Shown here piece by piece: positions 5,007 to 35,368 of a stretch of 48,405 bases of DNA (position 1 is its first letter; each line of letters opens with the position of its first letter). The stretch is from Thiohalospira sp. (GTDB lineage Bacteria; Bacteroidota; Bacteroidia; Bacteroidales; UBA12077). The DNA is taken from positions 1-48,405 of the forward strand of contig JBKHIH010000018.1 in the NCBI GenBank assembly GCA_046538755.1, read 5' to 3'. The position numbers and the translations under genes were made by a program. The notes beneath the pieces were generated by a model. The model saw nothing but the letters and a program-made list of their open reading frames with translations. It did no database searches and had not been told where the DNA came from.

Positions 5007-5022
5007 TATTCCTTTTTTATAA

Positions 5023-7915: not shown

Positions 7916-7930
7916 TTGGCAAAAAGATAA

Positions 7931-8096
7931 AAAAAAGATGGTGTCTAAAAAGGATTACAAGTGTCATTGCGATCCCGATAACTATCGGGAGAAGCAATCT
8001 ATATTTATTGATTATCAGCAGATTGCTTCACTCTCCCGATATCAATCGGGATCGTTCGCAATGACTTTTTCCTGGCTTTTTAGACACCATCTTTTT
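7931..8096. repeat. Long near-perfect palindromic repeat, probable bidirectional terminator, between convergent pfkA and a GH13 gene
   Basis: Terminal inverted repeat (AAAAAAGATGGTGTCTAAAAAG / CTTTTTAGACACCATCTTTTTT). Its ~35-bp arms (GTCATTGCGATCCCGATAACTATCGGGAGAAG and its near-perfect reverse complement) share the core with the element at 5023-5209. Confidence 0.75.
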
Positions 8097-8108
8097 TGTT
8101 GTATTTCG

Positions 8109-10451: not shown

Positions 10452-10469
10452 GGCAAATTGTATTTAGAA

Positions 10470-12329: not shown

Positions 12330-12333
12330 TTAT

Positions 12334-14640: not shown

Positions 14641-14662
14641 TGTGAAGGATTTTTTAAGATTT

Positions 14663-15316
14663 TTAAATTTTTTCGATTATTGAAATATTAACATTTTCAA
14701 AGCCAGGAATAACTAAGTCAGCCTTGGGTAAATTTTCAGGTTTACCCACACCGATGGTTTTCATTCCTGCATTTTTTGCTGCCTCGATACCCGATTCAGC
14801 ATCTTCAAAAACGATACATTGCCCGGGCAGGATATTTAATTCCTGGGCTCCTTTTAGAAAAACTTCAGGATCAGGCTTTGATTTACTGATTTTTGTGCCA
14901 TCAACAACTGCATCAAAGAAATTTTTCATTCCGATACGTTCTAAAATGGTTCCTGCATTTTTGCTTGATGAGCCGATTGCAATTTTGTAATGGGCTTGTT
15001 TTAACTCCTCAAGAAATTGTTTTACTCCTGGCAAAATATCTTGTGGAGTCATTTTTAATATATTTTCCCGGTACCATTCATTTTTATTGTTTGCCAGCCG
15101 TTGTTTCTCGTCATCCGAAATTGAATCTATTTTTCCAATTTCGAGCAGAATATCCAATGATTCCATTCTGCTGATTCCTTTTAGCTGCTCGTTTTGGGCT
15201 TCGGTAAGGTCGAAACCCATTTTGTTGGCCAGCTTTTTCCAGGCTTTATAATGAAAAACTGCGGTATCAACAATTACTCCGTCCAGATCAAAAATAATTG
15301 CTTTTATTTTGTGCAT
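14663..15316 (-). CDS. pgmB: beta-phosphoglucomutase (HAD superfamily)
   Basis: Near-canonical beta-PGM sequence (IIFDLDGVIVDTAVFHYKAWKKLA, QLKGISRMESL, GSSSKNA, KSKPDPEVF, FEDAESGIEAAKNAG). Confidence 0.9.
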   Translation of the reverse strand: MHKIKAIIFDLDGVIVDTAVFHYKAWKKLANKMGFDLTEAQNEQLKGISRMESLDILLEIGKIDSISDDEKQRLANNKNEWYRENILKMTPQDILPGVKQFLEELKQAHYKIAIGSSSKNAGTILERIGMKNFFDAVVDGTKISKSKPDPEVFLKGAQELNILPGQCIVFEDAESGIEAAKNAGMKTIGVGKPENLPKADLVIPGFENVNISIIEKI

Positions 15317-15318
15317 AA

Positions 15319-19779: not shown

Positions 19780-20011
19780 GAAGAGCAACCATTAAATTTC
19801 AGAAATAATAATGTGGAAAAACTACATCGTTCGTTTATACCTAAATATTTATATGTTTTTAAATGTAAAGTATTAAAAGTTGTGCTAAGTGTACAAAAAA
19901 TGCAGTAAAACCAGCCTTTTGTAATAAAAAAAAATCACTATTTGAACTTTTTGGCTTGAATCTTGTGCTATTTATAATGAGTTAATGAATTAAAAAAAGA
20001 AAGGATACATT

Positions 20012-20206
20012 ATGGCAATTACAAAAGTATGGATTGAAGAAGGTTGTACATCATGTGGATTATGTGAAAGTATATGCCCGGAAGTATTTGAAATGCCCGA
20101 TGAGGCAATTGTAAAAGAAGATGCAGATTTTGCTGCAAACGAAGAAGAAATTAAGGAAGCAGCAGAGAGTTGTCCGGTTGAGGTTATTAAATACGAAGAA
20201 TCTTAA
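20012..20206 (+). CDS. Single-cluster [4Fe-4S]/[3Fe-4S] ferredoxin
   Basis: CxxCxxCxxxCP motif (CTSCGLCESICP) plus a distal CP (SCPVEV). Length 64 aa. Confidence 0.8.
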   Translation: MAITKVWIEEGCTSCGLCESICPEVFEMPDEAIVKEDADFAANEEEIKEAAESCPVEVIKYEES

Positions 20207-20337
20207 AAATTATTAATGATTAACATTACTGTCCGGTAAATGGTTTAATGTCGTATCTACGGCACTTTATCAATTCATTTATAGTATTTTGTACAGCCTT
20301 TCATATTGTTAATTTAAGGATAGTGTTTGAAGAATAT

Positions 20338-20371
20338 AAAAAAGTTTCGTGTATATACGAAACTTTTTTAT
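20338..20371 (+). terminator. Rho-independent terminator after the ferredoxin gene
   Basis: Hairpin AAAAGTTTCG-tgtatata-CGAAACTTTT followed by a T-run. Confidence 0.6.
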
Positions 20372-20407
20372 ATTTGCAAGGTAGTTTCATTTATAAAATA
20401 AATACAG

Positions 20408-21625
20408 ATGAAATATAAACATGAGTATATAAGCCGGTCAAAGTATATCGGAAAAATAAATCCATATATTAATAAGGATATTATTAAAGTGCTTATCGGT
20501 CAAAGGCGTGTTGGGAAAAGTTATATGCTTTTTCAAATCATGGATGAAATTACTAAACAGGATAAAAAAGCGAATATCATTTATATAAGTAAAGAGTTAG
20601 ATGAATTTGATCACATTAAAGACTATAAAGATTTAATTCAGGAAGTAAACCAAAAAAAGACAAATAAAGACAAACAATATATTTTTATTGATGAGTTGCA
20701 GGATATCGAAAATTTTGAAAAAGCACTTCGCAGCTTACAGGCAAAAAAGGAATTTGATATTTATTGCACAGGAAGTAATGCTAAGTTATTATCTGGAGAA
20801 TTAGCAACATATTTAAGTGGCAGATATGTTGAGATTAAAATATACAGCTTAACGTTTAATGAATTCCTTGAATTTCATACGCTGGAAAACGATAATACTT
20901 CTTTAATCAAATACCTGAAATATGGGGGGTTACCTTACTTAATAAACCTTAAGTTACAAGATCATATTATTTATGATTACCTGAAAAATATTTATGCTGC
21001 CATTTTATTTAAAGATGTTGTTAAACGTTTTAATGTCAGGAACATTTATTTCCTTGAAAACCTTGTTAAGTACATAGCAGATAATACAGGTTCATTGGTA
21101 TCATCCAAGAAGATTAGTGATTTTTTAAAATCTCAAAAAATTCAAATTTCTCCACAATTGGTTATTGATTATCTGAAATATCTGGAATCAGCATTTTTCA
21201 TCTTTAAAACAACAAGAGCTGATATTGCAGGGAAAAAGATCTTTGAAATTGGCGAAAAATATTATTTTGAAGATTTAGGGTTGCGACATTCAATTATTGG
21301 ATATAAGGCAAATGATATTGGAAAAATTATGGAAAATGTTGTATATCAGCATCTGAAAACTCATGGCTATGATATTTATGTTGGCAAATTAGGCGAAAAA
21401 GAAATAGACTTTGTTTGCGAAAAAGAAGGTAAAAAAGTATATGTGCAGGTAACTTATCTGTTGCAGGATGATAAAACAATAAACAGGGAATTTGGTAATT
21501 TATTGGAAATAAAAGATAATTATCCTAAATATGTTGTTTCAATGGACGAAGTAATATCTGGTACTGATTATAAGGGAATTGAGCAAATTCATCTAAGAGA
21601 TTTTCTTTTAAGAGATACATTTTAA
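20408..21625 (+). CDS. AAA+ ATPase of the COG1373 / DUF4143 family
   Basis: Walker A (GQRRVGKS), Walker B (IFIDE), and a C-terminal DUF4143-like region. Confidence 0.7.
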   Translation: MKYKHEYISRSKYIGKINPYINKDIIKVLIGQRRVGKSYMLFQIMDEITKQDKKANIIYISKELDEFDHIKDYKDLIQEVNQKKTNKDKQYIFIDELQDIENFEKALRSLQAKKEFDIYCTGSNAKLLSGELATYLSGRYVEIKIYSLTFNEFLEFHTLENDNTSLIKYLKYGGLPYLINLKLQDHIIYDYLKNIYAAILFKDVVKRFNVRNIYFLENLVKYIADNTGSLVSSKKISDFLKSQKIQISPQLVIDYLKYLESAFFIFKTTRADIAGKKIFEIGEKYYFEDLGLRHSIIGYKANDIGKIMENVVYQHLKTHGYDIYVGKLGEKEIDFVCEKEGKKVYVQVTYLLQDDKTINREFGNLLEIKDNYPKYVVSMDEVISGTDYKGIEQIHLRDFLLRDTF

Positions 21626-21932
21626 GTAGCAAAGTATCACATGTTCCATTACGGATACAAATGAAAGGAAAGTCTTTCTTCAAGCCGCACGTGTGTGATT
21701 TTTTTAGGATTCATAGGGACGTAAAGTATGCGCTAACTGTACAAAGAAAAAAAGTGAAACCATTCCCGGTAAAGTTTAACTTAATGTCTGTTCAAATATA
21801 GTAAATCCAGGTAGTACTTATAAGAACTATGAAGTTTGTTTTAAAGAAGCTGCGTTTTTGTTTCCGGCTAATATTTTTTACCTTTCGGATTAATAATTAC
21901 AATTTAATGACTAAATAAAGAATTTAACTTTT

Positions 21933-24299
21933 ATGCGTAAAAAAGCATATGAAAATACCCTGGAAGATATTTTTATTGTTGATTCTGATAATATCTACGA
22001 AAATGAGATTATTCAACAATGTTTTGATGTAGTTGGTGCTTTTATGGTAGCTGTTAATTTAAAAGGTAACGTAACATTTGCTAATAAAACTGCAGCCGAG
22101 ATGTTAGGGTGCGATAAAAAAGAAATTGCAGGATTAAATTTTATAAAAAACTTTGTTGTTGAACAAAAACAAAACCAAATTAAAAAAATTTTTGAGTCGG
22201 TTTTAGAAGGAAAAACATTTAATAAAAAATATACGAGGTATTATATACAGGGAAAAAAGAAACGGCAGAAAATTATAGAATCTAAAAATGTAACGATACA
22301 AGATAAAAACAACCAAATTTTGGGTATATTAATTTCGGGCAGGGATGTTACCGATTATGTATTAAAACAAAAAAACTTACAAACCGACCTCAGTTTATAC
22401 AGGTTGCTTGCAAATAATATTCCGGATATTAATCTTTTTATTTTTGATAAAAATCTGAAATTTATTCTGGCTGAAGGAAATGAAATGAAAAATAACGATT
22501 TGAATGGTGATTATTTTGAGGAAAATATCCTTTATGAATTACCGGACAAAGAACTTCGTAAAATATGGACCCCGCTTTTTGAATCTGCACTGAAAGGCAT
22601 AGAATCATCGAAAGAATACAAATACAATAATTATCATTATTATATTTGGGTACTTCCGGTTTATACCCGAAGAAAAAAAATATTTAGAGGAGTTGCAATA
22701 ACACAAAACATTACAGAAGATAAACAAATAGAACGCAAACTGAAGAAATCGAAAGAAGAGGCAGAAAGAGCAAATCGCTCCAAAACAGATTTTTTAGCAC
22801 GAGTTAGCCATGAGATTAGAACACCTTTAAATGCTATTTTAGGCTTTGCCGAACAATTAAAGCAGTCTGAATTAAATGACCAACAAAATGATTATGTTAA
22901 TATTATAGAAAAATCATCGGAACACCTGCTATCTTTAATTAATGATATTCTGGTTTTATCTAAAATAGAAGCAAGACAAATACGATTTGATAAATCTCCT
23001 TTTAAGTTAAGATATACTATTAAATATCTCTATAACACCATGTTGGTTAAAGCCAACGAAAAAAATATCTGGTTTACCTACGATGTGGATGAAAAGTTAG
23101 ATCAGGTTCTTATTGGGGATCAGTTTCGTTTAAAACAAATTTTACTTAATCTGTTGGGAAATGCCATTAAATTTACAAATACGGGTTCGGTTGAATTAAA
23201 ATGTGTATTGGATGAAGAAACACATGATACAGTGAAAGTTAGATTTGATGTGATTGATACAGGAATAGGTATTAAATCTGAGAATTTAAAAAGTATTTTC
23301 GATAGATTTAAACAAGCCAATTCAACTATAACAAGAACATATGGAGGAACCGGTTTAGGGCTTGCTATTTGCAAAAACTTAATAGAATTACAGGCAGGTA
23401 GTTTATCCGTATCAAGTAAAGTTGGAGTAGGAACAACATTTACTTTTGTTATTCCTTATAAAAAAGGTAAACCTGATGATTTTATACCGGATGATATTAA
23501 AACAATTGATTCAAAGAATTTAAAAGATACAAAAGTTCTGTTGGTTGATGATGACAAATTCAGTCGTTTACTGGCAAAAACCCATTTAGATAAATTCGAA
23601 TGTAATACAACATTAGCTGCCAAGGGGTCAGATGCAATATCCTATTTAAAAAATCAAAATTTCGATATTGTATTACTCGATATACATATGGCTGAAACTA
23701 GTGGAGTTGATGTTGCTAAATTTATCAGGAAACAAAAAAAAGATAAAAACACAAAAATTATGGCTGTTACAGCTGCCGTATTAAAAGATGATATTCAGAA
23801 ATATTTTTCTGTTGGAATGGACGATTTCTTAATTAAACCTTTTAAAGAGAATGAATTATATAATAAAATGTGTGAATTACTCAGGATTAATAAAGGTAAG
23901 GATGTTAAAGAAAACAAGCAGCATATTGTAGAAGAAATTACCCAGGCTAAAAAATATGATTTATCAGATCTTGTAAAAATGGCCAATGGGGAAAAAGCGT
24001 TTATTAATAGTATGCTTAGTATTTTTATCGACAACACGGAAAGTACCATTCATTTATTTAAGAAATATCTGAAAGATGAAAATTGGGAGGAAATAGGAGA
24101 AACTGCTCATAAGATTTTACCATCATACAATCATCTTAAAATAAATGATGTTGTGCATAAATTAAACGAAATAAAAGAGCTTACACTTATTAATCCAAAT
24201 TATAAAGAGGTTCCTGAGCTTACTCAGAGTACGATTCATTTAATGGAAAAAATATTGGAAGATTTAAGAGAAGAGATGAATCAACTAACGGTTAATTAA
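21933..24299 (+). CDS. Cytoplasmic PAS-containing hybrid sensor histidine kinase (PAS-PAS-HisKA-HATPase-REC-HPt)
   Basis: H-box (VSHEIRTPLNAI), N/G boxes (LLGNAIKFT, DTGIGI, GGTGLGLAI), receiver-domain segment (VLLVDDD...LLDIHM) and a C-terminal HPt-like region (HKILPSYNHL). Confidence 0.8.
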   Translation: MRKKAYENTLEDIFIVDSDNIYENEIIQQCFDVVGAFMVAVNLKGNVTFANKTAAEMLGCDKKEIAGLNFIKNFVVEQKQNQIKKIFESVLEGKTFNKKYTRYYIQGKKKRQKIIESKNVTIQDKNNQILGILISGRDVTDYVLKQKNLQTDLSLYRLLANNIPDINLFIFDKNLKFILAEGNEMKNNDLNGDYFEENILYELPDKELRKIWTPLFESALKGIESSKEYKYNNYHYYIWVLPVYTRRKKIFRGVAITQNITEDKQIERKLKKSKEEAERANRSKTDFLARVSHEIRTPLNAILGFAEQLKQSELNDQQNDYVNIIEKSSEHLLSLINDILVLSKIEARQIRFDKSPFKLRYTIKYLYNTMLVKANEKNIWFTYDVDEKLDQVLIGDQFRLKQILLNLLGNAIKFTNTGSVELKCVLDEETHDTVKVRFDVIDTGIGIKSENLKSIFDRFKQANSTITRTYGGTGLGLAICKNLIELQAGSLSVSSKVGVGTTFTFVIPYKKGKPDDFIPDDIKTIDSKNLKDTKVLLVDDDKFSRLLAKTHLDKFECNTTLAAKGSDAISYLKNQNFDIVLLDIHMAETSGVDVAKFIRKQKKDKNTKIMAVTAAVLKDDIQKYFSVGMDDFLIKPFKENELYNKMCELLRINKGKDVKENKQHIVEEITQAKKYDLSDLVKMANGEKAFINSMLSIFIDNTESTIHLFKKYLKDENWEEIGETAHKILPSYNHLKINDVVHKLNEIKELTLINPNYKEVPELTQSTIHLMEKILEDLREEMNQLTVN

Positions 24300-24421
24300 T
24301 TCGGAATTATTTTGTATATTTGAAATATATTAACGATTTAATTGCTGCTTTTATCTTCGGTTTGTATTATTAAAACAAGTAAAGTACATTCAAAATCTCA
24401 AACTTTTAAAAAAAGGTTAAG

Positions 24422-25774
24422 ATGAATAAAATCCTGGTCATTGATGACGACTCATATATATGCAACTTACTGGTTAATTACCTTGAAAAGAACGGGTATC
24501 AGGCGCAATATTCGCTTTCTGGAAAGAAGGGAATACAATTGATTGAAAAAAATGAGTTCGATTTGGTATTATCCGATTTTCGATTACCGGATTGCGATGG
24601 CATGGATGTTTTAAAAAAAATAAAAGAATTAAAACCTTATCTCCCTGTTATTATCATGACAGCCTATGCCGATGTTCGTATGGCTGTAAAGTTAATAAAG
24701 TCAGGAGCATTCGATTATGTAACAAAACCTATCCAGCCGGAAGAAATTTTGACATTAATCAATAAGGCTACAAAAAAACATAATAATAAAGAAAAAAGTT
24801 ATTCACCCGGGAAGGATTTTATCATTGGAAAAAGCAAAGAAATACAGGAAGTTATGCAACACGTTAAGGTGGTAGCACCAACAGATATAACTGTTCTTAT
24901 CGAAGGTGAAACAGGTGCAGGGAAAGAGTACATTGCCAGAGCAATTCATTATTCAAGTAAACGTAAAAAGAAACCTTTTATAGCAGTCGATTGTGGCGCC
25001 ATTCCAAAAGAATTGGCTAACAGCGAACTGTTTGGGCATGTCAAAGGAGCTTTTACCGGAGCTATTAACGATAAAATTGGATTTTTTGAACAGGCCAAAG
25101 GAGGTACACTTTTTCTGGATGAGATAGGAAATTTACCCTATGAAAACCAGATAAAGCTTTTAAGAGCATTACAGGAAAAGGTAATTAGCAGAGTAGGAGA
25201 TAACAAAGATATAAAAGTAGATGTAAGGCTTATTGCAGCAACTAATGTTGATTTAATTAAACAGCTGGAAAATAATGAGTTTAGGGAAGATTTATACCAT
25301 CGTATCAATGGTTTTAAAATTAAAATTCCTGCACTGAGAGATAGAGGAGAGGATATCCTTGAATTTGTTGATTTTTTTATAAAAAAAGCCAATGAATCAT
25401 TTCAGAAAAATGTACTAGCAATAGATGATGAAGTTAAAAATTTATTTTTAAAATATGATTGGCCTGGGAACATCAGGGAACTGCAAAATATCATAAACCG
25501 TGCTGTATTATTAACGAGCGGCCAGCTAATCAAACCCGAAGTATTACCGCAGGAAATTGCTCAATTATCTGGTAAACAAGAAACAAGTATTCCGGAAAAA
25601 GCCGGTAATATGAATGATTTAAAAGAAGCAACCGAAATAACAGAAAAAGAAATTATTGCTAATGTGTTAATAAAAACCAATTATAACAAATCAAAAGCAG
25701 CAAAAGTGCTTAATATTGACCGAAAAACACTCTACAATAAAATAAAGCAATACGAAATAGAGATACTGAAATAA
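24422..25774 (+). CDS. Sigma-54-dependent response regulator (NtrC family)
   Basis: Receiver domain (VIDDD...DFRLPD). AAA+ sigma54-interaction domain (GETGAGKE, GAFTGA, ELFGH). C-terminal Fis-type HTH. Confidence 0.85.
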   Translation: MNKILVIDDDSYICNLLVNYLEKNGYQAQYSLSGKKGIQLIEKNEFDLVLSDFRLPDCDGMDVLKKIKELKPYLPVIIMTAYADVRMAVKLIKSGAFDYVTKPIQPEEILTLINKATKKHNNKEKSYSPGKDFIIGKSKEIQEVMQHVKVVAPTDITVLIEGETGAGKEYIARAIHYSSKRKKKPFIAVDCGAIPKELANSELFGHVKGAFTGAINDKIGFFEQAKGGTLFLDEIGNLPYENQIKLLRALQEKVISRVGDNKDIKVDVRLIAATNVDLIKQLENNEFREDLYHRINGFKIKIPALRDRGEDILEFVDFFIKKANESFQKNVLAIDDEVKNLFLKYDWPGNIRELQNIINRAVLLTSGQLIKPEVLPQEIAQLSGKQETSIPEKAGNMNDLKEATEITEKEIIANVLIKTNYNKSKAAKVLNIDRKTLYNKIKQYEIEILK

Positions 25775-26136
25775 CTTACCCTTTTTATTACTCAAATTTT
25801 TATTTTCCCTTGTGGAATCCTATCTCAATTGTGGATTTATTCTACACTTTTTATGGTATCCGTTTATTAGTAAATTGGTTACATCTCTGTTATGTAAGCC
25901 GTTGATGATGTGTCAATAAAATTGGCATGGATTTTCAATAAACTATAATAAAAAAGGAAACAAAATTTAAAAAAAATTGAGTAATTATAATAAATCTTTA
26001 GAATTATATAAAACAGGCAAATTAGCTTTTTTTACTGGCAAGTGATGAAAGTAAATTTATCACAGGATCTGTAATTACAATAAGTGTAGGAATAAGCGTG
26101 TAAAAATTAAATTATAAACATTAAAAACAAATTATT

Positions 26137-26739
26137 ATGGCTTTTAAATTACCAGAATTAGGATTTGACTACGATGCATTCGAACCACACATTGATGCCC
26201 AAACAATGGAAATACACCATACAAAGCATCATGCTACTTATTTAAAAAAGTTCAATGCAGCGGTAGAAGGAACTGAACTTGAAGAAATGAGCCCTTCTGA
26301 AATTTTTGCCAATGTTTCAAAATATGATGATTCGGTACGTAATAATGGAGGGGGATTTTTTAACCATGCTCTTTTTTGGACGTTCTTAACGCCAAACGCT
26401 CACGAAAATTTAGATAAAGATTTGGAAGATGCTATTGTTAAGTATTTTGGAACCTTAGAAAATTTAAAAGAAGAATTCTCTGAAGCTGCAAAAACCCAGT
26501 TTGGATCAGGTTGGGCATGGTTGGTTAAAAAAGATAATGGAGAATTAGTGGTTACATCTTCTCCAAATCAGGATAACCCGTTAATGGATATTGCACCGAT
26601 TAAAGGTACACCCATTTTATGTCTCGATGTATGGGAACATGCTTATTATTTAAAATATCAAAATAAGCGCCCGGAATATATTAAAGCATTCTGGAATGTG
26701 GTGAACTGGGATAAAGTAGCAGAATTATATCATAAATAA
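26137..26739 (+). CDS. sodA: Fe/Mn superoxide dismutase
   Basis: Canonical Fe/Mn-SOD motifs ([31 protein letters not shown]). Confidence 0.9.
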
Positions 26740-26753
26740 AAAAAAATTGTAAA

Positions 26754-27044
26754 ATGAAAGATTATCACGAACAACCCAATGAATTAAGCACAGAAACACG
26801 TGATTTTGTAAGAGCATTGAATTCTTTAAAAGAAGAAATTGAAGCGATAGATTGGTACCAACAGCGTATGGATGTTGCTTCCGATCAGCAATTAAAAAAA
26901 ATATTAAAGCATAATCGCAACGAAGAAATGGAACATGCTTGTATGGCATTGGAATGGTTGAGAAGAAATATGGAAGGTTGGGATGAAATGCTTAAAACAT
27001 ATTTATTTACTGAAAAAGAAATTACAAAAATTGAAGAAAAGTAA
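26754..27044 (+). CDS. Ferritin-like encapsulin cargo protein (EncFtn/Flp family)
   Basis: About 96 aa and helical, with an ExxH di-iron motif (NEEMEHACMALEW). It lies immediately (60 bp) upstream of a family-1 encapsulin shell gene and 15 bp after sod. Confidence 0.6.
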   Translation: MKDYHEQPNELSTETRDFVRALNSLKEEIEAIDWYQQRMDVASDQQLKKILKHNRNEEMEHACMALEWLRRNMEGWDEMLKTYLFTEKEITKIEEK

Positions 27045-27104
27045 TTTCGGAAAGTATTACTAAAAACTAATGTATTAGGATTTGAATCATAAAATAATAT
27101 AGAA

Positions 27105-27908
27105 ATGAATATACTCAAAAAACAAATAGCGCCTTTATCAGATAAGGCATGGAAAGAGATTACTGATCAGTCATCAGAAATATTTAGTATTTACCTGACA
27201 GCCAGAAGTTTTGTTGATTTAAATGGGCCAAATGGATTGGAATATGGAGGAGTTTCTACAGGTAGATTAGTACAAACAAACAAGGAAAACAAAGAGAATG
27301 TAAATTATGGTTTAAGGGAAATAGTTCCGCTTGTAGAAATTCGTAAACCTTTCGAATTAAATATTTGGGAAATGGATAATGTTGACAGAGGTGCATTGGA
27401 TGTAGATTTGGAACCTGTTGTTAAAGCTGCTAAACAGGTAGCTCTTTTTGAAGAAGATTTAATTTATAAAGGATTTAAAGACGGACAGGTTCAGGGCCTT
27501 GAAAAAAGCTCTATACACCCAAAAGTTACTTTGCCAAACGATCCTACGAAGTTGTTGAAAGTTATTGGTGAACAAGTTACTGTTTTTGAGAAACATGGTG
27601 TTAAAGGCCCATTTACCTTAGTTGTTAATGATAAAAAATGGCAGGATTTAGCCAGTCTGGAAAAGGGTTACCCGATTGTTAAACAATTAGAAGAGGTAAT
27701 GAATATTAAAGTAGTAATTAATTATGGAAATTATAACTCATTTTTTGTTTCAGAACGAGGCGGTGATTTTGAACTGTCCATTGGACAGGACATTTCTATA
27801 GGTTATGATAGCCATGATACAGAAAAAGTAAAGCTTTACTTTACCGAATCTTTTACCTTTAGAGTACTCGGGCCCGAAGCAGTAATCGTACTGGAAAGCC
27901 CAAAATAA
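27105..27908 (+). CDS. Family-1 encapsulin nanocompartment shell protein (linocin M18-like, HK97 fold)
   Basis: Strong end-to-end resemblance to Thermotoga-type encapsulin: LKKQIAPLSDKAWKEITDQSSEIF ... SERGGDFELSIGQDISIGYDSHD ... LYFTESFTFRVLGPEA. Length 267 aa. Confidence 0.85.
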   Translation: MNILKKQIAPLSDKAWKEITDQSSEIFSIYLTARSFVDLNGPNGLEYGGVSTGRLVQTNKENKENVNYGLREIVPLVEIRKPFELNIWEMDNVDRGALDVDLEPVVKAAKQVALFEEDLIYKGFKDGQVQGLEKSSIHPKVTLPNDPTKLLKVIGEQVTVFEKHGVKGPFTLVVNDKKWQDLASLEKGYPIVKQLEEVMNIKVVINYGNYNSFFVSERGGDFELSIGQDISIGYDSHDTEKVKLYFTESFTFRVLGPEAVIVLESPK

Positions 27909-28077: not shown

Positions 28078-28112
28078 TAAAATATATTCTCGTGAAGATT
28101 CTTACAATAACT

Positions 28113-28597
28113 ATGAACCCTGTTATTGATAAAACAACAATAACTGAGTTGGTTATACCACATAATTTGTATTAGATATATCAGGATAACCTTTGAAGAT
28201 GGCCCTGGATGAAGGCATTTCTATGATAAAAACTAAATTTAAAGGAACTGTATTTTTTGCTGGATAAAGATAAAAACCATTATGGACATTGAAGAAGCAG
28301 CTCATAAGCTTGTTGAGAATGATGCCTGTACAATGCTTATTATATCTCTGGGTACAAAAGGAGTTATGTTAACAAGCAGGAGGTATTAATATTGAATATT
28401 TTGTGCCTCCGATAATACCAGTTAAATTATCTGTTAGAGCTGAAGATTCAATGATAGCAGGAATTTTTAATGGATTTATAAAAGCTTATTGGAGTTCCCA
28501 GACAATAAAATATGGTTTTGCTGCAGGTATATCCGCAAAAATTTCTGAAAGATGTAGGTTTTACACTAAAGAAGTAACGGATAAAATTTATAATTAG
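28113..28597 (+). pseudogene. Degraded duplicate of the downstream pfkB-family kinase gene
   Basis: Fragments in three different frames match the intact paralog at 28700-29629: MNPVIDKTTITE (N-terminus), AHKLVENDACTMLIISLGTKGVMLT (middle) and PPIIPVKLSVRAEDSMIAGIFNGFIKAYW (C-terminus). Stops and frameshifts interrupt them. Confidence 0.75.
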
Positions 28598-28699
28598 GTA
28601 AAAACTTATAAGGATAAGGAATCGAATTGCTATTGAAATCCTTTATATTAAGTTTATTGGTTACTTTTTTATGGTTTGTTTATTAAAAGATTTTATTTA

Positions 28700-29629
28700 A
28701 TGAAAGTTTTAACATTAACAATGAATCCGGTTTTAGACAGAAATACAAGTACAAAAATGGTTATGCCGGATAAAAAAGTACGATGCACCAGGCCAGAATT
28801 GAAACCCGGAGGTGGGGGAATTAATGTTTCCAGAGCTATTCAAAAATTAGGATACGAGTCTTCAGCATGTGCTTTGGCGGGTGGAACAAACCGTGGAAAA
28901 ATAGAAGATTTACTTGCAAAACATAATATTAAAACACACATAATAGATTCAGGAACCGATTGCAGGGAAAATTTATTTGTTTTTGATGAAACTACAGGCC
29001 AGATGTACAGGTTTATAATGCCCGGAGATCATGTAATTGCCGACGAAGAAAAAATATTACAACAAATTAAGGATATTGCAATAAATTACAATTATGTAGT
29101 TGCCAGTGGTAGTCTGCTTCCGGGAATATCGACTGAATTTTATGCAAAGTTGGCTAAATTTTTTAAAGAAAATGATATTAAATTCATTTTGGATACATCA
29201 GGCCCGGCGCTTAAAAATGCTATTCAAGAGGGTGTATACCTGATTAAGCCCAATTTAAGAGAACTTGCCAGTTTGGTAGGAAAGGATAAGTTAACAGGAA
29301 TAGACCAGGAAAAAGCTGCAAATGAAATTTTAGAAAAGGGGCAGGCTAATGTTATTGTATTATCGCTTGGAGCCAAAGGTGCAATGTTGGCCCAAATTGG
29401 ACATATAATTGAATACATTACTCCTCCCACAATGCCAATAGTTAGTCCTGTGGGAGCCGGCGACTCAATGGTAGCCGGAATTATTACCGGGTTTATTAAA
29501 GGTTTTTGGCCAACAGAAGCAATTCGATATGGAGTAGCAGCAGGTACAGCCGCGGCCATGCAACCTGGTTCGGAACTTTGTACTAAAGAAGATACCGACA
29601 GGATATGGAAATGGCTAAAGCCTGATTAA
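28700..29629 (+). CDS. PfkB-family sugar-phosphate kinase (Pfk-2 / 1-phosphofructokinase / tagatose-6-P kinase subfamily)
   Basis: Motifs GGGGINVSRA and VGAGDSMVAGI, the FruK/LacC/Pfk-2-type anion hole. The start was chosen at the internal Met (MKVLTLTMNPV); the longest ORF begins at 28676. Confidence 0.75.
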   Translation: MKVLTLTMNPVLDRNTSTKMVMPDKKVRCTRPELKPGGGGINVSRAIQKLGYESSACALAGGTNRGKIEDLLAKHNIKTHIIDSGTDCRENLFVFDETTGQMYRFIMPGDHVIADEEKILQQIKDIAINYNYVVASGSLLPGISTEFYAKLAKFFKENDIKFILDTSGPALKNAIQEGVYLIKPNLRELASLVGKDKLTGIDQEKAANEILEKGQANVIVLSLGAKGAMLAQIGHIIEYITPPTMPIVSPVGAGDSMVAGIITGFIKGFWPTEAIRYGVAAGTAAAMQPGSELCTKEDTDRIWKWLKPD

Positions 29630-29754
29630 TATCAAGCTATAGTTCATAAAATAGATTATAATCAGTTAAATTAAAAGAGGGTTATTATGTTTCAATTTAT
29701 AGAACTTAGTAAAAGCAAAATAGCATGATTTTGAATCTCTAAAATAAAATAACA

Positions 29755-30246
29755 ATGGTAATTATAGTTTTTGGTTTGCCAGGAACCGGGAAAACATACT
29801 TTTCAGAGCATTTATCGGAAAGCATTGGAGCTGTTCATCTGAATACTGACAAGCTCAGAATTGAATATGATAAAACAGGAGAATATGATGAAGAAACAAA
29901 AAATTTCATTTACAATCAACTAAAAAATGAAATGGTGAAAAATATAGCAAATTCTAATGATGTTATTGTGGATGGAACATTTCATCGGAAAGAAAATCGA
30001 AAAGCATTTGAAGTTGAAATAAGCAGGCAGGGAGTAAATGCTTTTTTTATTGAAGTAAAGGCTAAGGAAGAAACCATTAAACAAAGGCTGAAAAATAACA
30101 GGAAATATAGTGAAGCTGGTTATGAGGTTTATTTAAAAATAAAACAGAATTTTGATGCTTATGAAAAAGATCATTTAACGCTATGGTCTGACAGTCAAGA
30201 TGTAAAAGATATGATTAAAAAAGCCAAACAATATATTTATGAATGA
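29755..30246 (+). CDS. Small P-loop kinase (AAA_33 / gluconokinase-like)
   Basis: Walker A at the N-terminus (FGLPGTGKTY) and a ~160-aa nucleotide/sugar-kinase-like fold. The stop overlaps the start of the next gene (ATGAATGA). Confidence 0.6.
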   Translation: MVIIVFGLPGTGKTYFSEHLSESIGAVHLNTDKLRIEYDKTGEYDEETKNFIYNQLKNEMVKNIANSNDVIVDGTFHRKENRKAFEVEISRQGVNAFFIEVKAKEETIKQRLKNNRKYSEAGYEVYLKIKQNFDAYEKDHLTLWSDSQDVKDMIKKAKQYIYE

Positions 30247-31240
30247 GAAACAAATACATAAACTAATTGATAACAAAACTCTTCCGGATTCAAATGACAA
30301 TATTGAATTAAAGGAAACCCATATCTCATGGGTTATTCTCACCAATAATTTTGCGTATAAAGTGAAAAAACCCGTAACATTCTCTTTTCTGGATTTTTCC
30401 ACCCTTGATAAACGTGAATATTACTGTTGGAGAGAAATAGAGTTGAATAAACGGCTTGCTGAAGACATGTATCTGGATGTGATACCTATTACTGAAAAAA
30501 TGGTATCAACCAAAAATAGCAATAATGAAATAATCGACTATGCCGTTAAAATGAAACGCATGGATAATGAGAAAGAAATGAGCCGCCTTCTCTCCCGGAA
30601 CGAGGTTAGATCAAAAGATATTGAAAATATTGCTGCTGTTATATCTGAATTTCATAATAAAACCCAACAGGTAAAAAATGTATTTAACACTACACGGTTT
30701 CAGAAACAATACAAAAAATTGCAAGAAGAGCTTGATTATGTTAACGAATTTATTGGCTCCAAATGGGGCGAAAAGATTAAAGCATGTGTTGAAAAATCCA
30801 ATACTTATTTAAATAATAACCGGGAATTATTAAATGAAAGAGTAATTTCCGGATTTCAAAAAGATTGCCATGGAGATTTAACATCATATAACATCTTTTT
30901 ATACGATCCGCCTGTTGTTTTTGATTGTATCGAATTCAATAATGAGTTCAGGCAAATTGATGTATTTAATGAAATAGCTTTTTTATGTGTGGATCTTGAT
31001 TTTTTTGGTAAAAAAGAATTTAGCCAACTTTTCTTTGATAAATATTCTGAACTTATGAATTATAAAAACAGCGATGAGGAAATCAGCCTCTTTAATTTTT
31101 ATAAAAGTTACAGAGCTAACATTAGAGCTAAAGTTACCATATTAAACCAAAAACAACATCAGAATGATGATAAAGCTAACAATGATATTAAACAGTTTAT
31201 TGATTTAATGACTGAATATTTGTCCATTATCAAAACGTAA
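30239..31240 (+). CDS. APH/choline-kinase-fold (protein-kinase-like) phosphotransferase, possible sugar kinase (maltokinase-like fold)
   Basis: Catalytic-loop-like motif (CHGDLTSYNIFLYD), DFG-like segment (FDCIEFNNEF) and Brenner-type N-lobe. Translationally coupled to the upstream P-loop kinase. Confidence 0.55.
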   Translation: MNEKQIHKLIDNKTLPDSNDNIELKETHISWVILTNNFAYKVKKPVTFSFLDFSTLDKREYYCWREIELNKRLAEDMYLDVIPITEKMVSTKNSNNEIIDYAVKMKRMDNEKEMSRLLSRNEVRSKDIENIAAVISEFHNKTQQVKNVFNTTRFQKQYKKLQEELDYVNEFIGSKWGEKIKACVEKSNTYLNNNRELLNERVISGFQKDCHGDLTSYNIFLYDPPVVFDCIEFNNEFRQIDVFNEIAFLCVDLDFFGKKEFSQLFFDKYSELMNYKNSDEEISLFNFYKSYRANIRAKVTILNQKQHQNDDKANNDIKQFIDLMTEYLSIIKT

Positions 31241-31409
31241 AAGTTAATGTTATGAGGGCAACCATTTTTAACGTTAAGAATTCTTAAATATCTTACATAT
31301 ACTATTCAATATTTTAAAATTTTACTTGTTCAGGTTAATTATAATCGCATTATAATTTTGGTTTGGGATTAGCATATATAGTAGAAAATAAATGATATGA
31401 AAAAGAAGT

Positions 31410-32954
31410 ATGCAAAATAATAATTACATAGGTTTAAAAGCTGTTATTCTCGATATGGATGGAGTAATAACACAAACAGCCAAAGTACATAAAAAAGCAT
31501 GGAAAAAAATGTTTGATGCATTTTTAGAAGGAGAATCCAAAGATTTTGAACCTTTTACCAATGCTGATTATTTAAAATATGTAGATGGCAAACCCAGATA
31601 TAAAGGAGTTCAAAGTTTTCTGCAATCGAAGAAAATAGATTTACCTTACGGAGATCCGGATGACTCTGAAAAAGAAAAAACTGTTTGTGGTTTAGGAAAC
31701 AGAAAAAACAAGATATTCCTTCAGTTAATTGAAACAAACGGGGTGGATGTGTATGAAGATTCTGTAAGTATGATCAAGCAATGGATTGACGCTGGATTGA
31801 AAACAGCCGTTATATCTTCTAGCAAAAATTGCAAACAAATTCTACAAACAGCAAATATCCTTAATTTATTCGATGTTTTGATTGATGGTGTGGTTTCCGC
31901 CGAAAGAAACCTGGAAGGGAAACCCGAACCTGATATATTCTTTGAGGCTGCGAAAGATATTGGTGTTAATGCAAGTGAATGCGTAGTTTTCGAAGATGCT
32001 ATTTCGGGAGTGCAGGCCGGTAGCAAAGGAAATTTTGCTTATGTAGTGGGCGTTAACAGGGATGATAATAAAATTGCTTTGTTAAACAATGGTGCTGACG
32101 ATGTTATAAACAGTTTTAATGAGATTCATTTAATGGGCAATCAAGAGCTAAAATATTATTTTAATAATCCCTTAACTAATATTTTTTCAGAACCCAGGGA
32201 GTTTGAAAAAGAAATGAAAAATAAGATGCCGGTACTTTTTCTCGATTATGACGGAACGCTTACTCCTATCGTAAAGCATCCTGAAGATGCTGTTTTATCT
32301 GATGATATGAAAAAAGCGATCAAAAATTGTGCATCTAAGATTTTTGTGGCTGTTGTCAGTGGAAGAGATATGGACGATGTGAAAGATTTGGTTGGCGTTG
32401 ATGAATTATATTATGCCGGAAGCCATGGGTATAGAATTTCCGGACCCGATGGATTATATCACGAACACAAAAAAACGAAAGAAATATTACCTAAGCTGGA
32501 CAAGATTGAAAAGAAACTGAATAAAAACCTATCGGATATAGAAGGAGTTAAAATAGAGAGGAAAAGATACGCCATCGCTGTACATTATAGAAATGTGGCC
32601 GAAAAAGATGTGACAAATCTTAAAAATAAAGTTGAAAGTTTAATGAACAAATCGGATGGATTAAAGATAGGAGGAGGTAAAAAAATAGTTGAAATAAAAC
32701 CTGATATAGATTGGCACAAAGGGAAAGCCATCTCCTGGATACTTAACACGTTGGAATTAAAAGAAAAAAAGGAAATCTTTCCAATTTATATAGGAGACGA
32801 TATTACCGACGAAGATGCATTTAAGGAAATTGAAAATAATGGAGCGGGCGTTCTGGTAGGTTTTCACGATGATGTTGAAAATACCAGGGCGAGGTTTAGC
32901 CTGAAGAATGTATATCAGGTTAAACTATTTTTAGAAATGCTGGTACAATTTTAA
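31410..32954 (+). CDS. Bifunctional HAD fusion: beta-phosphoglucomutase-like N-domain plus trehalose-6-phosphate phosphatase (OtsB-like) C-domain
   Basis: N-domain: ILDMDGVITQTAKVHKKAWKKMF, SSSKNC, GKPEPDIF, FEDAISGVQAG (beta-PGM family). C-domain: LFLDYDGTLTPIV, VAVVSGRD, GKA, YIGDDITDEDAF (T6PP family). Confidence 0.75.
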   Translation: MQNNNYIGLKAVILDMDGVITQTAKVHKKAWKKMFDAFLEGESKDFEPFTNADYLKYVDGKPRYKGVQSFLQSKKIDLPYGDPDDSEKEKTVCGLGNRKNKIFLQLIETNGVDVYEDSVSMIKQWIDAGLKTAVISSSKNCKQILQTANILNLFDVLIDGVVSAERNLEGKPEPDIFFEAAKDIGVNASECVVFEDAISGVQAGSKGNFAYVVGVNRDDNKIALLNNGADDVINSFNEIHLMGNQELKYYFNNPLTNIFSEPREFEKEMKNKMPVLFLDYDGTLTPIVKHPEDAVLSDDMKKAIKNCASKIFVAVVSGRDMDDVKDLVGVDELYYAGSHGYRISGPDGLYHEHKKTKEILPKLDKIEKKLNKNLSDIEGVKIERKRYAIAVHYRNVAEKDVTNLKNKVESLMNKSDGLKIGGGKKIVEIKPDIDWHKGKAISWILNTLELKEKKEIFPIYIGDDITDEDAFKEIENNGAGVLVGFHDDVENTRARFSLKNVYQVKLFLEMLVQF

Positions 32955-32977
32955 ACTAAAAAAATATTCGATTAATT

Positions 32978-35368
32978 ATGAGTAACTGGATTTTACAATA
33001 TAAAGATTGGAACAAAGAAGAACATCCCCTAAGAGAGGCATTATGTACTCTGGGTAATGGATATTTTGCTACCCGTGGTGCTATAGAAGAATTAAAAGCC
33101 AATGATTTTAATTATCCCGGAACATATTTGGCGGGTGGTTATAACAGGGCAAAATCAAAAATTAATGGTAAAGAAATAGTTAATGAAGATCTGGTAAATA
33201 TTCCTAACTGGTTATTTCTGACATTTAAAATAAAAAACGGAAAGTGGCTTAATCTTGATGATGCTGAAATACTCGAATATCTGGTTAACCTGAATCTTAA
33301 AGAAGGTTTACTGGAAAGAAAAATTAAATTCCGTGATAATAACAATCACGAAACCACTTTAATAAGCAAAAGAATTGTTAGTATGCACGATCATCATGTA
33401 ATGGGCATTGAGTGGACAATGATACCTGAAAACTGGGAAGGTGAGATAACAGTCCGTTCAGCATTAGATGGAAGTGTTAAAAACAACGGTGTAGAGCGGT
33501 ACAATGATTTAAATAATGAACATCTCGATATTTTAGATAACGGAAAATTTAATGATAATAAGATTTTTCTATTAAGTCAGACCAAACAATCGAAACTGTT
33601 AATTGCACAAACATCACGATTAAGTATTTATCAGGAAAAAGATAAGATAAATACTAAAATAGAAGTGAATAAAGATGAGGAGATGGTGTGGCATGATACA
33701 AAATTTAACTGTTTAAAATTGCAACCTGTAAGGATAGAAAAAATAGCTGTCTTATTTACCTCAAGAGACTATGCAATTAGCGATCCGCTTGACGAAGCTC
33801 AACAAAAAATTAGTAAAATTGATAATTTTCATGAAATTTATTTAAATCATAAAATGGTTTGGGAACAACTATGGAACCATAGTAATTTCGAATTAGAAAC
33901 AGAAAACCATAGTTTATTATTTTTACGCCTGCATATATTTCATCTTTACCAAACCATATCGCAAAACAGTATAGATTATGATATTGGTATTCCTTCAAGG
34001 GGTTGGCATGGTGAGGCTTACCGGGGACATGTTTTTTGGGATGAATTATATATTTTGCCGTTTCTTAACCTGCATATGCCACATTTAGCACGTGCAATGC
34101 TAATGTACCGTTACCGCCGACTGCCCCGGGCACGTTATGCAGCTGCAGAAAATGGCTGTCGAGGTGCAATGTTTCCCTGGCAAAGTGGTAGTAACGGACG
34201 CGAAGAAAGCCAGAAAATTCATTTAAATCCTAAATCAGGCCGGTGGATTCCAGATTATTCAAATATTCAACGTCATATTAATGCAGCAATACCTTATAAT
34301 GTTTGGCTCTATTACCAGTCAACCAATGATATGGATTTTTTAGCAGGTTATGGTGCTGAAATTATTTTTAATACTGCCTTGTTTTGGTTAAGTATTGCAG
34401 AATATAATCCTAAAAGAAACCGGTATGAGATCAGTGGCGTTATGGGGCCGGATGAGTATCATACACATTATCCCGATTCAGATTTTCCGGGATTGAATAA
34501 TAATGCTTATACCAATTTTATGGCTGTTTGGGTAATCAGATGTGCCCTTGAGTTATTTAAAATATTAGATGAAAAAATAATAAATGAACTTACCCAAAAG
34601 GTCGGATTTACAAACAAGGATGTGGAGAAATGGGAATCGCTCATAAAAAAAATGTATATCCCGTTTAACGATAAAGGGATTATCATGCAATTCGATGGTT
34701 TTGATAAATTGAAAAATCTCGATTGGGAAAAGTATAAAAAGAAATATGGTAATACGCTTCGCCTCGATCGTATCCTTGAAAAGGAGAACGATTCGCCGAA
34801 TAATTATAAAGTATGTAAGCAGGCAGATGTTTTAATGCTTTTTTACTTATTTTCTGCCGATGAGTTAACTAGGATTTTTAATGATTTAGATTATGATTTT
34901 GACCCAAAAACCATACCTGATAATATTGAATACTACCAAAAGATTACTTCACATGGATCAACCTTAAGCCGTGTTATTTTTTCATGGGTTTATGTGCGTT
35001 CAAATAGAGAATTATCGTGGAGCAATTTTAGAGAAGCTTTATTGAGCGATTTTAATGATGTTCAGGGAGGCACTACACCTGAAGGTATACATCTTGGTGC
35101 TATGGCCGGAACCATTGATATTATGCAGCGCTGTTATACCGGACTTGAAATACGGGATGATATTTTATGGTTAAATCCATGTTTGCCTGAAAAACTTAAT
35201 CAATTGAAAATGCACATAAGGTATCGTAGTCATTGGATTAAATTAAGAATTACGCAGAAAAAATTGTATTTGCAATTTGAAAAAGGTTGGGCAAATCCAA
35301 TTACGATTAGCGTAAATGGACAACAAAAAGAACTTGGCTTTAACGACTCTGCAGTGTTTGATTTATAA
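32978..35368 (+). CDS. GH65 disaccharide phosphorylase (trehalose/T6P/kojibiose/maltose phosphorylase family), specificity unknown
   Basis: GH65 N-terminal (CTLGNGYFATRGAIEE), catalytic-domain (GWHGEAYRGHVFWDE, MGPDEY) and C-terminal beta-sandwich regions. Length 796 aa. Confidence 0.8.
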   Translation: MSNWILQYKDWNKEEHPLREALCTLGNGYFATRGAIEELKANDFNYPGTYLAGGYNRAKSKINGKEIVNEDLVNIPNWLFLTFKIKNGKWLNLDDAEILEYLVNLNLKEGLLERKIKFRDNNNHETTLISKRIVSMHDHHVMGIEWTMIPENWEGEITVRSALDGSVKNNGVERYNDLNNEHLDILDNGKFNDNKIFLLSQTKQSKLLIAQTSRLSIYQEKDKINTKIEVNKDEEMVWHDTKFNCLKLQPVRIEKIAVLFTSRDYAISDPLDEAQQKISKIDNFHEIYLNHKMVWEQLWNHSNFELETENHSLLFLRLHIFHLYQTISQNSIDYDIGIPSRGWHGEAYRGHVFWDELYILPFLNLHMPHLARAMLMYRYRRLPRARYAAAENGCRGAMFPWQSGSNGREESQKIHLNPKSGRWIPDYSNIQRHINAAIPYNVWLYYQSTNDMDFLAGYGAEIIFNTALFWLSIAEYNPKRNRYEISGVMGPDEYHTHYPDSDFPGLNNNAYTNFMAVWVIRCALELFKILDEKIINELTQKVGFTNKDVEKWESLIKKMYIPFNDKGIIMQFDGFDKLKNLDWEKYKKKYGNTLRLDRILEKENDSPNNYKVCKQADVLMLFYLFSADELTRIFNDLDYDFDPKTIPDNIEYYQKITSHGSTLSRVIFSWVYVRSNRELSWSNFREALLSDFNDVQGGTTPEGIHLGAMAGTIDIMQRCYTGLEIRDDILWLNPCLPEKLNQLKMHIRYRSHWIKLRITQKKLYLQFEKGWANPITISVNGQQKELGFNDSAVFDL

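Follow-up and report, generated by a model that had tools for sequence, protein, structure and literature searches.

A beta-phosphoglucomutase-like::trehalose-6-phosphate phosphatase fusion paired with a GH65 phosphorylase: a candidate nucleotide-sugar-independent route to trehalose in a bacterial stress island

Trehalose protects cells in the face of desiccation, salt, oxidative stress and dormancy, and textbooks and reviews list five routes for its synthesis. A stretch of 48,405 nucleotides (contig JBKHIH010000018.1 of assembly GCA_046538755.1, analysed whole and hereafter called the window) raises the question of whether there might be yet another, for it carries a single polypeptide that joins a beta-phosphoglucomutase (beta-PGM)-type HAD domain to a trehalose-6-phosphate (T6P) phosphatase, directly followed by the gene for a GH65 phosphorylase. 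The initial annotation had tentatively assigned these two genes, along with three preceding kinase genes, to one pathway leading to trehalose. The five co-directional open reading frames (ORFs) that it listed are all present:

28697-29629, + strand: pfkB sugar-phosphate kinase (ATG start, a TTG at 28676 being also possible; PF00294, E 1e-43)
29755-30246, + strand: AAA_33 P-loop kinase, 163 aa (PF13671, E 2e-18)
30239-31240, + strand: small-molecule kinase with a predicted APH/choline-kinase fold, 333 aa (AlphaFold2 model and Foldseek)
31410-32954, + strand: fusion of a beta-PGM-type HAD domain and a T6P phosphatase domain, 514 aa (Pfam PF00702/PF13419 and PF02358)
32978-35368, + strand: GH65 phosphorylase, predicted to be of the T6P phosphorylase type, 796 aa (three GH65 Pfam domains)

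The layout already hints at three units, given gaps of 125 nt between pfkB and the AAA_33 gene and of 169 nt between the APH-like gene and the fusion; the fusion and the GH65 gene lie 23 nt apart, and the AAA_33 and APH-like genes share the ATGAATGA overlap (30239-30246) that had been reported for them and that can be read directly in the sequence. The five-gene stretch is indeed a mosaic of three separate stress-island modules, of which the fusion and the GH65 gene (31410-35368) form the conserved core. For this core, the reading that we prefer with moderate confidence is a nucleotide-sugar-independent synthesis of trehalose, running from glucose 6-phosphate (G6P) and beta-glucose 1-phosphate (beta-G1P) through T6P to trehalose in a stress island, with the direction of flux being the interpretive part of the proposal.

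The first element of this reading is the specificity of the GH65 enzyme. Its N-terminal, catalytic and C-terminal domains are all recognised (PF03636, E 1e-62; PF03632, E 3e-127; PF03633, E 1e-15), and it fails the cut-off of the maltose-phosphorylase-like model PRK13807 (342 against 838 bits), a model that the GH65 encoded at 12334-14640 in the same window passes with 1189 bits. Among solved structures in the PDB it ranks closest to 9lb6 (E 1e-133), followed by kojibiose phosphorylase 3wiq (1e-109), glucosylglycerol phosphorylase 4ktp (4e-72) and maltose phosphorylase 1h54 (3e-54). The title of the 9lb6 entry reads 'trehalose-6-phosphate hydrolase', and the entry would seem to be the structure that Feng et al. 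2025 (cited in PMC13121652) obtained for T6P phosphorylase. In GH65 enzymes, specificity is determined at positions 64, 392, 394, 402, 416 and 585 of CsKP, according to De Beul et al. (PMC8537180), and a Caldithrix GH65 with the motif DQGQDE was verified to make T6P from beta-G1P and G6P (PMC8537180). Transferred to the window enzyme via an alignment to 3wiq, these positions fall on D71, Q402, G404, Q412, D426 and E603, i.e., the signature DQGQDE, with the assignment of position 416 hinging on a one-residue loop choice (HMMER pairs it with Y427, while D426 is invariant in the family). A direct reading of the alignment finds the same six residues in 9lb6.

The catalytic apparatus is likewise complete. 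The alignment to 3wiq identifies the catalytic acid as E493 (E483 in CsKP), the minus-1 subsite as W354, D355, K614 and Q615 (CsKP W343, D344, K596, Q597) and the phosphate site as R341, Y348, S661, T662 and H705 (CsKP K/R330, Y337, S631, S632, H675), with CsKP S632 replaced by threonine in the window enzyme and in 9lb6 alike. Homologues about 60% identical are abundant, one of them annotated as a T6P phosphorylase. When one genome per species was scanned and 80 GH65 loci were kept (a set to which the Caldithrix and Kuenenia loci do not belong), the catalytic acid and minus-1 subsite residues were found to be conserved in all 80, the phosphorylase site was kept in 80/80 and DQGQDE occurred exactly in 58. 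Both the signature and the score ranking are wrong for a maltose, kojibiose or trehalose phosphorylase, and a hydrolase is excluded by the intact phosphate site. The view that this second GH65 of the window is not of the maltose or kojibiose type is thus upheld by DQGQDE, by 9lb6 as the best solved relative and by the complete phosphate site; its predicted activity is that of a T6P phosphorylase (EC 2.4.1.216; De Beul subgroup 22).

The fusion protein supplies the other two activities. Pfam matches PF00702 over residues 10-205 and PF02358 over residues 277-487 (E 3e-61), with the domain limits at about residues 1-250 for the beta-PGM-type HAD and 262-514 for the T6P phosphatase. The N-terminal domain passes TIGR02009, the PGMB-YQAB subfamily model (162.1 against 153.35 bits), and is closest in the PDB to the 260-aa beta-PGM 8h5s (E 4e-56), far above the Lactococcus lactis enzyme (1.5e-18). 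Its residues D15, D17, T23, H27, W31, G60, R63, S136-S-S-K-N140, K171, E195 and D196 are identical to those of the window's separate PgmB and almost invariant in an alignment of 48 homologues. D15, D17, H27, R63, S136-N140, K171, E195 and D196, whose counterparts in the L. lactis beta-PGM are D8, D10, H20, R49, S114-N118, K145, E169 and D170, are conserved in 44-47 of the 48, with K139 being K or R and S137 being S or A. The C-terminal domain passes the OtsB-type model TIGR00685 (202.3 against 68.05 bits) and is closest to the trehalose-phosphate phosphatase 5gvx (E 3e-59); all 39 homologues aligned here keep D279-Y-D281-G-T, S317-G-R, K437 and G462-D-D-I-T-D-E either unchanged or with conservative replacements. 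The possibility that the phosphatase is a dead domain was rejected, all HAD motifs I-IV being intact. Hence, the description of the N-terminal domain as beta-PGM-like holds at the level of TIGR02009 and of all the hallmark residues, with the TIGR01990 equivalog not reached, and that of the C-terminal domain as a T6P phosphatase holds through TIGR00685, its catalytic DxD being present. Both HAD domains keep every catalytic residue, and they are predicted to act as a mutase and a phosphatase.

The pairing is not peculiar to the window. The 80 loci, in which gene content was counted by tblastn, come from more than ten phyla, including Bacteroidota, Cyanobacteria, Gemmatimonadota, Planctomycetota, Synergistota, Desulfobacterota, Nitrospirota, Chlamydiota and Actinomycetota, along with Gamma- and Alphaproteobacteria, Binatia and archaea (Ca. 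Ethanoperedens, Ca. Argoarchaeum). A beta-PGM-like gene is found in 68 of them, nearly always directly 5' of the GH65 gene. In 47 loci the HAD and T6P phosphatase domains together lie directly upstream of GH65—as two-domain fusions in 30, as split adjacent ORFs in nine and as triple fusions into the GH65 itself in eight, a mycobacterial OtsB1-like protein among them—and these are spread over Bacteroidota, Cyanobacteria, Planctomycetota, Desulfobacterota, Proteobacteria, Actinomycetota, Nitrospirota, Chlamydiota and archaea. The triple fusions are independent of one another and are joined by a further one, the 1326-aa HAD+T6P phosphatase+GH65 protein P0076; the domain order is invariably beta-PGM, T6P phosphatase, GH65. 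An adjacency that recurs in 47 of 80 unrelated loci, eight of them fused, is far beyond chance, and the recurrent fusion constitutes Rosetta-stone evidence for joint action of the three activities. The expectation that the whole five-gene cluster would be conserved as a unit stands, then, for the fusion and GH65 genes across Bacteroidota and many other phyla, but fails for the kinases, as the neighbourhood censuses and the gene order of the closest relative (locus L168, whose GH65 is 87% identical) both indicate. A lone GH65 of the T6P phosphorylase type, 67% identical and with no HAD partner, is found in locus L170 (10001-12415) beside GT4, GH130 and GH31 genes, so some members of the clade lie outside the module.

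Acting jointly, the three activities would make up a short route. The GH65 phosphorylase would form T6P from beta-G1P and G6P; the C-terminal HAD-IIB domain of the fusion would dephosphorylate it irreversibly to trehalose; and the N-terminal beta-PGM domain would balance the two substrates by making beta-G1P from G6P, or the reverse. For G6P formation, beta-G1P might also come from maltose by way of the window's own maltose phosphorylase, whose gene lies 17 kb upstream. On balance, two hexose phosphates would give trehalose and two inorganic phosphates (Pi), without OtsA and without nucleoside-diphosphate glucose (NDP-glucose). Since the beta-PGM and phosphorylase steps are reversible whereas the phosphatase step is irreversible, trehalose would be the sole net sink, and a fused phosphatase would be counterproductive in catabolism, which favours synthesis. 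The chemistry has precedents: a combination of maltose phosphorylase, beta-PGM and T6P phosphorylase is reported to yield T6P in vitro (Taguchi et al. 2020, cited in PMC11442529; PMC13121652), and the synthetic direction of T6P phosphorylase has been reported to be favourable (PMC13121652).

From this arrangement and from the surroundings of the module we infer both the direction of flux, toward synthesis, and a role in stress or osmotic adaptation. The order superoxide dismutase (SOD), encapsulated ferritin (EncFtn), encapsulin (of family 1), pfkB and, further on, fusion and GH65 is common to the window, L168 and locus L033, with a BON protein gene preceding it in L033 and genes for MscS, universal stress (USP) and BON proteins additionally present around it in L168; it suggests an oxidative-stress nanocompartment operon within the island. 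In locus L001 the order is response regulator, SOD, fusion, GH65, USP and Cu/Zn SOD. These SOD, encapsulin, BON, USP and MscS genes of the window, L001, L033 and L168 would count for synthesis. A Pfam census of 250 neighbours (at positions +/-2) returned GT20/OtsA ten times, PfkB five, alpha-amylase/TreS-like proteins four, glucokinase and phosphoketolase three each, and glucose-phosphate isomerase (PGI), class-II aldolase, PPK2, MscS and USP twice each, while neither sugar transporters nor LacI/GntR regulators are among the top families of these neighbours. Such a profile marks a setting of stress and hexose-phosphate metabolism, not a sugar-utilisation locus; OtsA, PfkB, glucokinase, PGI, MscS and USP as neighbours, with no transporter among the top families, would again point to synthesis.

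The same enzymes could, however, run the other way, as in L. lactis: T6P would be cleaved to beta-G1P and G6P, the beta-PGM would turn beta-G1P into G6P, PfkB would draw the carbon into glycolysis and the phosphatase would be a safety valve against toxic T6P. This catabolic or mobilising role we hold to be unlikely, although several facts that weigh against synthesis speak for it. The only physiological role demonstrated for T6P phosphorylase, with beta-PGM, is the catabolic one in Lactococcus; an Rv3400-type beta-PGM is required for the growth of Mycobacterium tuberculosis on trehalose; about 17 of the 80 loci have beta-PGM and GH65 without the T6P phosphatase domain, and so resemble the catabolic pair; and PfkB and phosphoketolase, found among the neighbours, are catabolic enzymes of fructose 6-phosphate. 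Set against this, no phosphotransferase system (PTS), trehalose transporter or regulator that would bring trehalose in as T6P occurs in the window or among the recurrent neighbours; the fused and intact phosphatase would destroy the substrate of the pathway, yet it is retained in 47 of the 80 loci and in the triple fusions; and with OtsA as the sole source of T6P the cycle would be futile. Less likely still, in our estimate, is a buffer appended to the OtsA pathway, in which near-equilibrium beta-PGM and GH65 reactions would balance T6P with G6P and the phosphatase would set the trehalose output, such that the module tunes T6P and is no independent pathway. The GH65 reaction is reversible, and OtsA or an OtsA-OtsB fusion adjoins the module in 12 of the 80 loci, including those of five Bacteroidales and a Cloacimonadota contig, where the OtsA-OtsB gene stands directly 3' of GH65. 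The remaining 68 loci and the window lack OtsA within 10 kb, however, and the joining of all three domains in one polypeptide suggests that the reactions form a series complete in itself.

Other observations temper the case for trehalose synthesis irrespective of which alternative they favour. Our conclusion on the module is drawn from sequence and gene context; the N-terminal domain fails the beta-PGM equivalog TIGR01990 (109.6 against 189.4 bits), and in actinobacterial triple fusions this domain has lost a catalytic aspartate. Where OtsA-OtsB lies beside the module, as in several Bacteroidales, a second synthetic route looks redundant. In M. tuberculosis an otsB1 deletion had no obvious phenotype and T6P phosphatase activity has been reported for OtsB2 only, although, according to a preprint, the 2004 paper that denied OtsB1 phosphatase activity gave no supporting data. 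The clusters with OtsA-OtsB after GH65 (L008-L011, L076 and L002, at ~12400-14650, several of them from soda-lake or sediment Bacteroidales, with an MscS gene next in L002) form three genes that encode two T6P-forming enzymes and two T6P phosphatases.

What of the three kinases, which the initial annotation had proposed to supply phospho-sugar substrates to a single five-gene pathway? In the window the genes point the same way and lie close together, pfkB shows enrichment around the module (within 10 kb of GH65 in 8 of the 80 loci), phosphorylation of a sugar by an APH-fold kinase is possible in principle, and PfkB, an Rv2004c-like APH::AAA_33 fusion and an OtsB1-like protein co-localise in Mycobacterium scrofulaceum. 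We nevertheless deem such a pathway very improbable, and a single operon or pathway of five genes was rejected on the neighbourhood censuses and the L168 gene order. The AAA_33/APH pair is absent from L168, where a SpoIIAA-like gene stands instead, and in L033 its place is taken by genes for a DUF302 protein, an HtrA-type protease and SpoIIAA; an APH-like neighbour was found in 1 of the 80 GH65 loci (L087) and AAA_33 in none of the 80 in the tblastn census; conversely, among 80 metagenomic APH-like loci, GH65 is nearby in one and pfkB in one. Moreover, the pair has a distinct conserved context of its own: in other Bacteroidota (L005-L007, at ~9500-11000 in each) the overlapping pair has no GH65 near it and keeps company with PolX, an NAD-dependent ligase (LigA), a PpsA-like enzyme and Fpg. 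The 125- and 169-nt intergenic gaps again divide the three units. Thus, of the proposed kinase trio only pfkB recurs near the module, and the AAA_33 and APH-like kinases drop out of the trehalose pathway; they constitute an independent, Rv2004c-type stress module inserted here, and the DNA-repair/PpsA context may say more about its substrate than sugar metabolism does. The pair is widespread, occurring also in L088 (3431-4904) and, as a fusion, in the Mycobacterium locus L087 (6190-7689, - strand).

The nature of the two kinases of this inserted module deserves comment, as that of the second is all but invisible to sequence comparison. The AAA_33 protein has only weak adenylate-kinase-like matches in the PDB. 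The 333-aa ORF has no Pfam match even at E<=10, PF01636 included, and none in NCBIfam, and it has no match in the PDB either by phmmer or with a 21-sequence profile; some of its homologues carry weak matches to PF01636. Its AlphaFold2 model, built on 30 homologues, has a predicted local distance difference test score (pLDDT) of 92.5, and a Foldseek search of the PDB with it returned, at probability 1.0 and template-modelling (TM) scores of 0.5-0.6, only small-molecule kinases of the APH/choline-kinase fold, namely methylthioribose kinase, homoserine kinase II, choline kinases, glucosamine kinase and APH(2''). The loop H211-G-D213-L-x3-N218 (HxDxxxxN) and the metal-binding aspartate D229 are invariant or nearly so in the family. 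The model thereby confirms a predicted bilobal APH/choline-kinase fold, and the earlier 'APH-fold' call is vindicated by structure prediction and Foldseek, not by sequence searches.

The pfkB product can be placed more directly. It passes the hexose-kinase subfamily model TIGR03168 (268 against 216), remains below the Pfk-2 equivalog NF007632 (254 against 353 bits), and has as its best PDB match E. coli Pfk-2 (3cqd, E 5e-61), with tagatose-6-phosphate kinase at 2e-31 and tagatose-6-phosphate and fructose-1-phosphate kinases in general at about 1e-31; it is predicted to be a sugar-phosphate kinase closest to 6-phosphofructokinase isozyme 2. It directly adjoins the module in 4 of the 80 loci, from three lineages (Pontibacter, Gemmatimonadaceae and Longimicrobiales), and its association with the module is genuine but a minority one, that of an optional companion. 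It might be a glycolytic stress isozyme or, more speculatively, might supply the fructose-1,6-bisphosphate that primes the beta-PGM, an enzyme that requires a phosphorylating primer and for which fructose-1,6-bisphosphate has been proposed as the main one in vivo. A canonical PfkA-type phosphofructokinase is also encoded in the window, at 6815-7915. The 768-nt 'gap' 5' of pfkB is not empty, as it holds a decayed pfkB (tblastn E 2e-23) with in-frame stops and with residues ~25-162 missing. L168 retains two intact pfkB genes in tandem: the intact pfkB of the window is 88% identical to pfkB2 of that pair, while the remnant matches pfkB1 better than pfkB2.

How, then, does the core compare with what is known? 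The characterised T6P phosphorylases (CaGP of Caldithrix abyssi, that of Ca. Kuenenia stuttgartiensis, TrePP of L. lactis and 9lb6/9lb7) share with the window GH65 the three-domain architecture, the signature DQGQDE, the catalytic acid and the phosphate site, in which 9lb6 has the S-T pair as well; the reviewed papers treat them as catabolic enzymes or as biocatalysts and make no mention of a fused beta-PGM/T6P phosphatase partner, whereas for the window enzyme the activity is a prediction from its sequence. In L. lactis, trePP and pgmB encode the same kinds of enzymes, T6P phosphorylase and beta-PGM, and are likewise encoded together, but there T6P is the substrate to be degraded; it derives from PTS uptake, and the pathway is not known to include a T6P phosphatase. 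The window, by contrast, has a T6P phosphatase fused to the beta-PGM and no linked uptake system, so its gene content would point to the opposite net direction. With the OtsA/OtsB pathway the module shares the final T6P phosphatase step, its C-terminal domain passing the same TIGR00685; OtsA makes T6P by a GT20 transferase reaction from UDP- or ADP-glucose, while here it would be made by a phosphorylase from beta-G1P, with a saving of one nucleotide triphosphate per trehalose if the proposed route is real. A further parallel is an artificial one: the engineered cascade of maltose phosphorylase, beta-PGM and T6P phosphorylase comprises three activities that are all encoded in the window, with the difference that the cascade is described as 'new-to-nature', whereas the window has naturally occurring, linked genes to which a phosphatase is added.

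A natural parallel may be struck with mycobacteria. L087, from M. scrofulaceum, carries side by side a 499-aa APH-like::AAA_33 protein, a tandem-USP protein and a divergent T6P phosphatase+GH65 protein of up to 1238 aa whose GH65 signature is SQGQDE, with a pfkB 8 kb away. The 333-aa ORF finds its counterpart there with 161 bits by tblastn; the matching ORF also has a C-terminal AAA_33 domain, and the 333-aa protein is equivalent to the N-terminal part of this Rv2004c-like protein. Going by gene order and by the M. tuberculosis genome, we take the L087 genes to correspond to Rv2004c, Rv2005c, OtsB1 (Rv2006) and PfkB. The domain inventory of the OtsB1/Rv2004c/PfkB set of the M. tuberculosis DosR regulon is that of the window, the linkage being the one seen in L087, but in mycobacteria the three domains reside in one polypeptide and the fusion of the kinase domains has the opposite order. 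In the triple-domain polypeptide of L087 (8660-12376) the T6P phosphatase motifs are intact and the nucleophilic aspartate of the beta-PGM-like N-terminal domain is lost (GLDC); the actinobacterial triple fusions L039 and L043 have DxG in that domain and, like L087, keep all catalytic residues of the T6P phosphatase and GH65. The mutase for these proteins may be supplied in trans, for instance by an Rv3400-type beta-PGM, M. tuberculosis Rv3400 being a separate, validated beta-PGM. In M. tuberculosis, OtsB1 and Rv2004c are under DosR control, and carbon-starved cells were the only ones in which they were detected; a mild streptomycin phosphotransferase activity has been reported for Rv2004c, and the role of OtsB1 has been described as unknown.

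In light of this, a wider proposal can be framed, which we put forward tentatively and with slightly less than even confidence: the module might be a sixth, nucleotide-sugar-independent trehalose route (two hexose phosphates to trehalose and two Pi), used under stress or energy limitation by bacteria and archaea of more than ten phyla, and might also be what OtsB1 does in the DosR dormancy regulon of M. tuberculosis, a function long sought. If so, a route that needs only hexose phosphates would be cheaper, requiring no NDP-glucose activation, and suited to energy-starved states; OtsB1 (Rv2006), a dormancy-regulon protein, would gain a testable function; there would be an explanation for the wide spread of the module, which reaches ethane-oxidising archaea and soda-lake Bacteroidales; and the 'new-to-nature' cascade engineered for T6P production would already be in natural use. 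The route appears not to be described in the open-access literature searched, the enzymes belonging to known families and their natural combination into a trehalose-forming module being apparently new. Reviews and related papers of 2022-2026 (a glycoside-phosphorylase review of 2022, a GH65 review of 2024, a T6P review of 2025 and a biomanufacturing paper of 2026) present T6P phosphorylase solely as catabolic or its synthetic use as 'new-to-nature'. The initial annotation, which was aware of no characterised route of this kind, agrees with these open-access sources, which describe none.

The following further features of the window belong to the setting of the module or may bear on its regulation:

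12334-15316, - strand: canonical maltose phosphorylase and beta-phosphoglucomutase genes (PRK13807, TIGR01990)
21933-27908, + strand: PAS hybrid histidine kinase, sigma-54-dependent response regulator, Fe/Mn SOD, encapsulated ferritin and encapsulin (Pfam)
28089-28618, + strand: decayed pfkB paralogue, a pseudogene remnant (tblastn)
31359-31374, + strand: possible sigma-54 -24/-12 element (TGGTTTGGGATTAGCA), weak, 51 nt 5' of the fusion ATG

A gene for a sigma-54-dependent activator of the NtrC type lies upstream of the module at 24422-25774, and the TGGTTTGGGATTAGCA element has the correct GG-N10-GC spacing; a good GG-N10-GC element also precedes the fusion homologue in L008. The element coincides with no conserved block in an upstream alignment of the window, L168, L033 and L001, and matches to the sigma-54 pattern occur across the window at chance level (11 found against 9.7 expected). 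A sigma-54 two-component system is the more likely candidate regulator in the window, as opposed to DosR in mycobacteria. Sigma-70-like promoters and intrinsic terminators show no excess over shuffled sequences and none marks the intergenic gaps, which is expected for Bacteroidota, and Rfam gave no match in the window.

The canonical malP-pgmB locus announced for 12.3-15.3 kb is found by family models at 12334-15316 on the - strand, with scores of 1189 bits to PRK13807 for MalP and 254 bits to TIGR01990 for PgmB, set in a GH13/MFS starch locus. This starch and maltodextrin locus as a whole (15-16821) comprises five GH13 proteins (one with a type IX secretion system (T9SS) C-terminal sorting domain and one a cyclomaltodextrinase), the PfkA-type phosphofructokinase, a GGDEF protein, MalP, PgmB and an MFS transporter. 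The source contig has a GC content of ~33% and encodes T9SS sorting domains, and every best match is to Bacteroidales or Bacteroidota; its deposition under Thiohalospira sp. (Gammaproteobacteria) is probably a binning error. The GC fraction falls to 0.29-0.31 at 20001-26000, against 0.33-0.37 elsewhere in the window, over a stretch that spans the genes of the two-component regulators and that of an AAA_14/DUF4143 ATPase (20408-21625).

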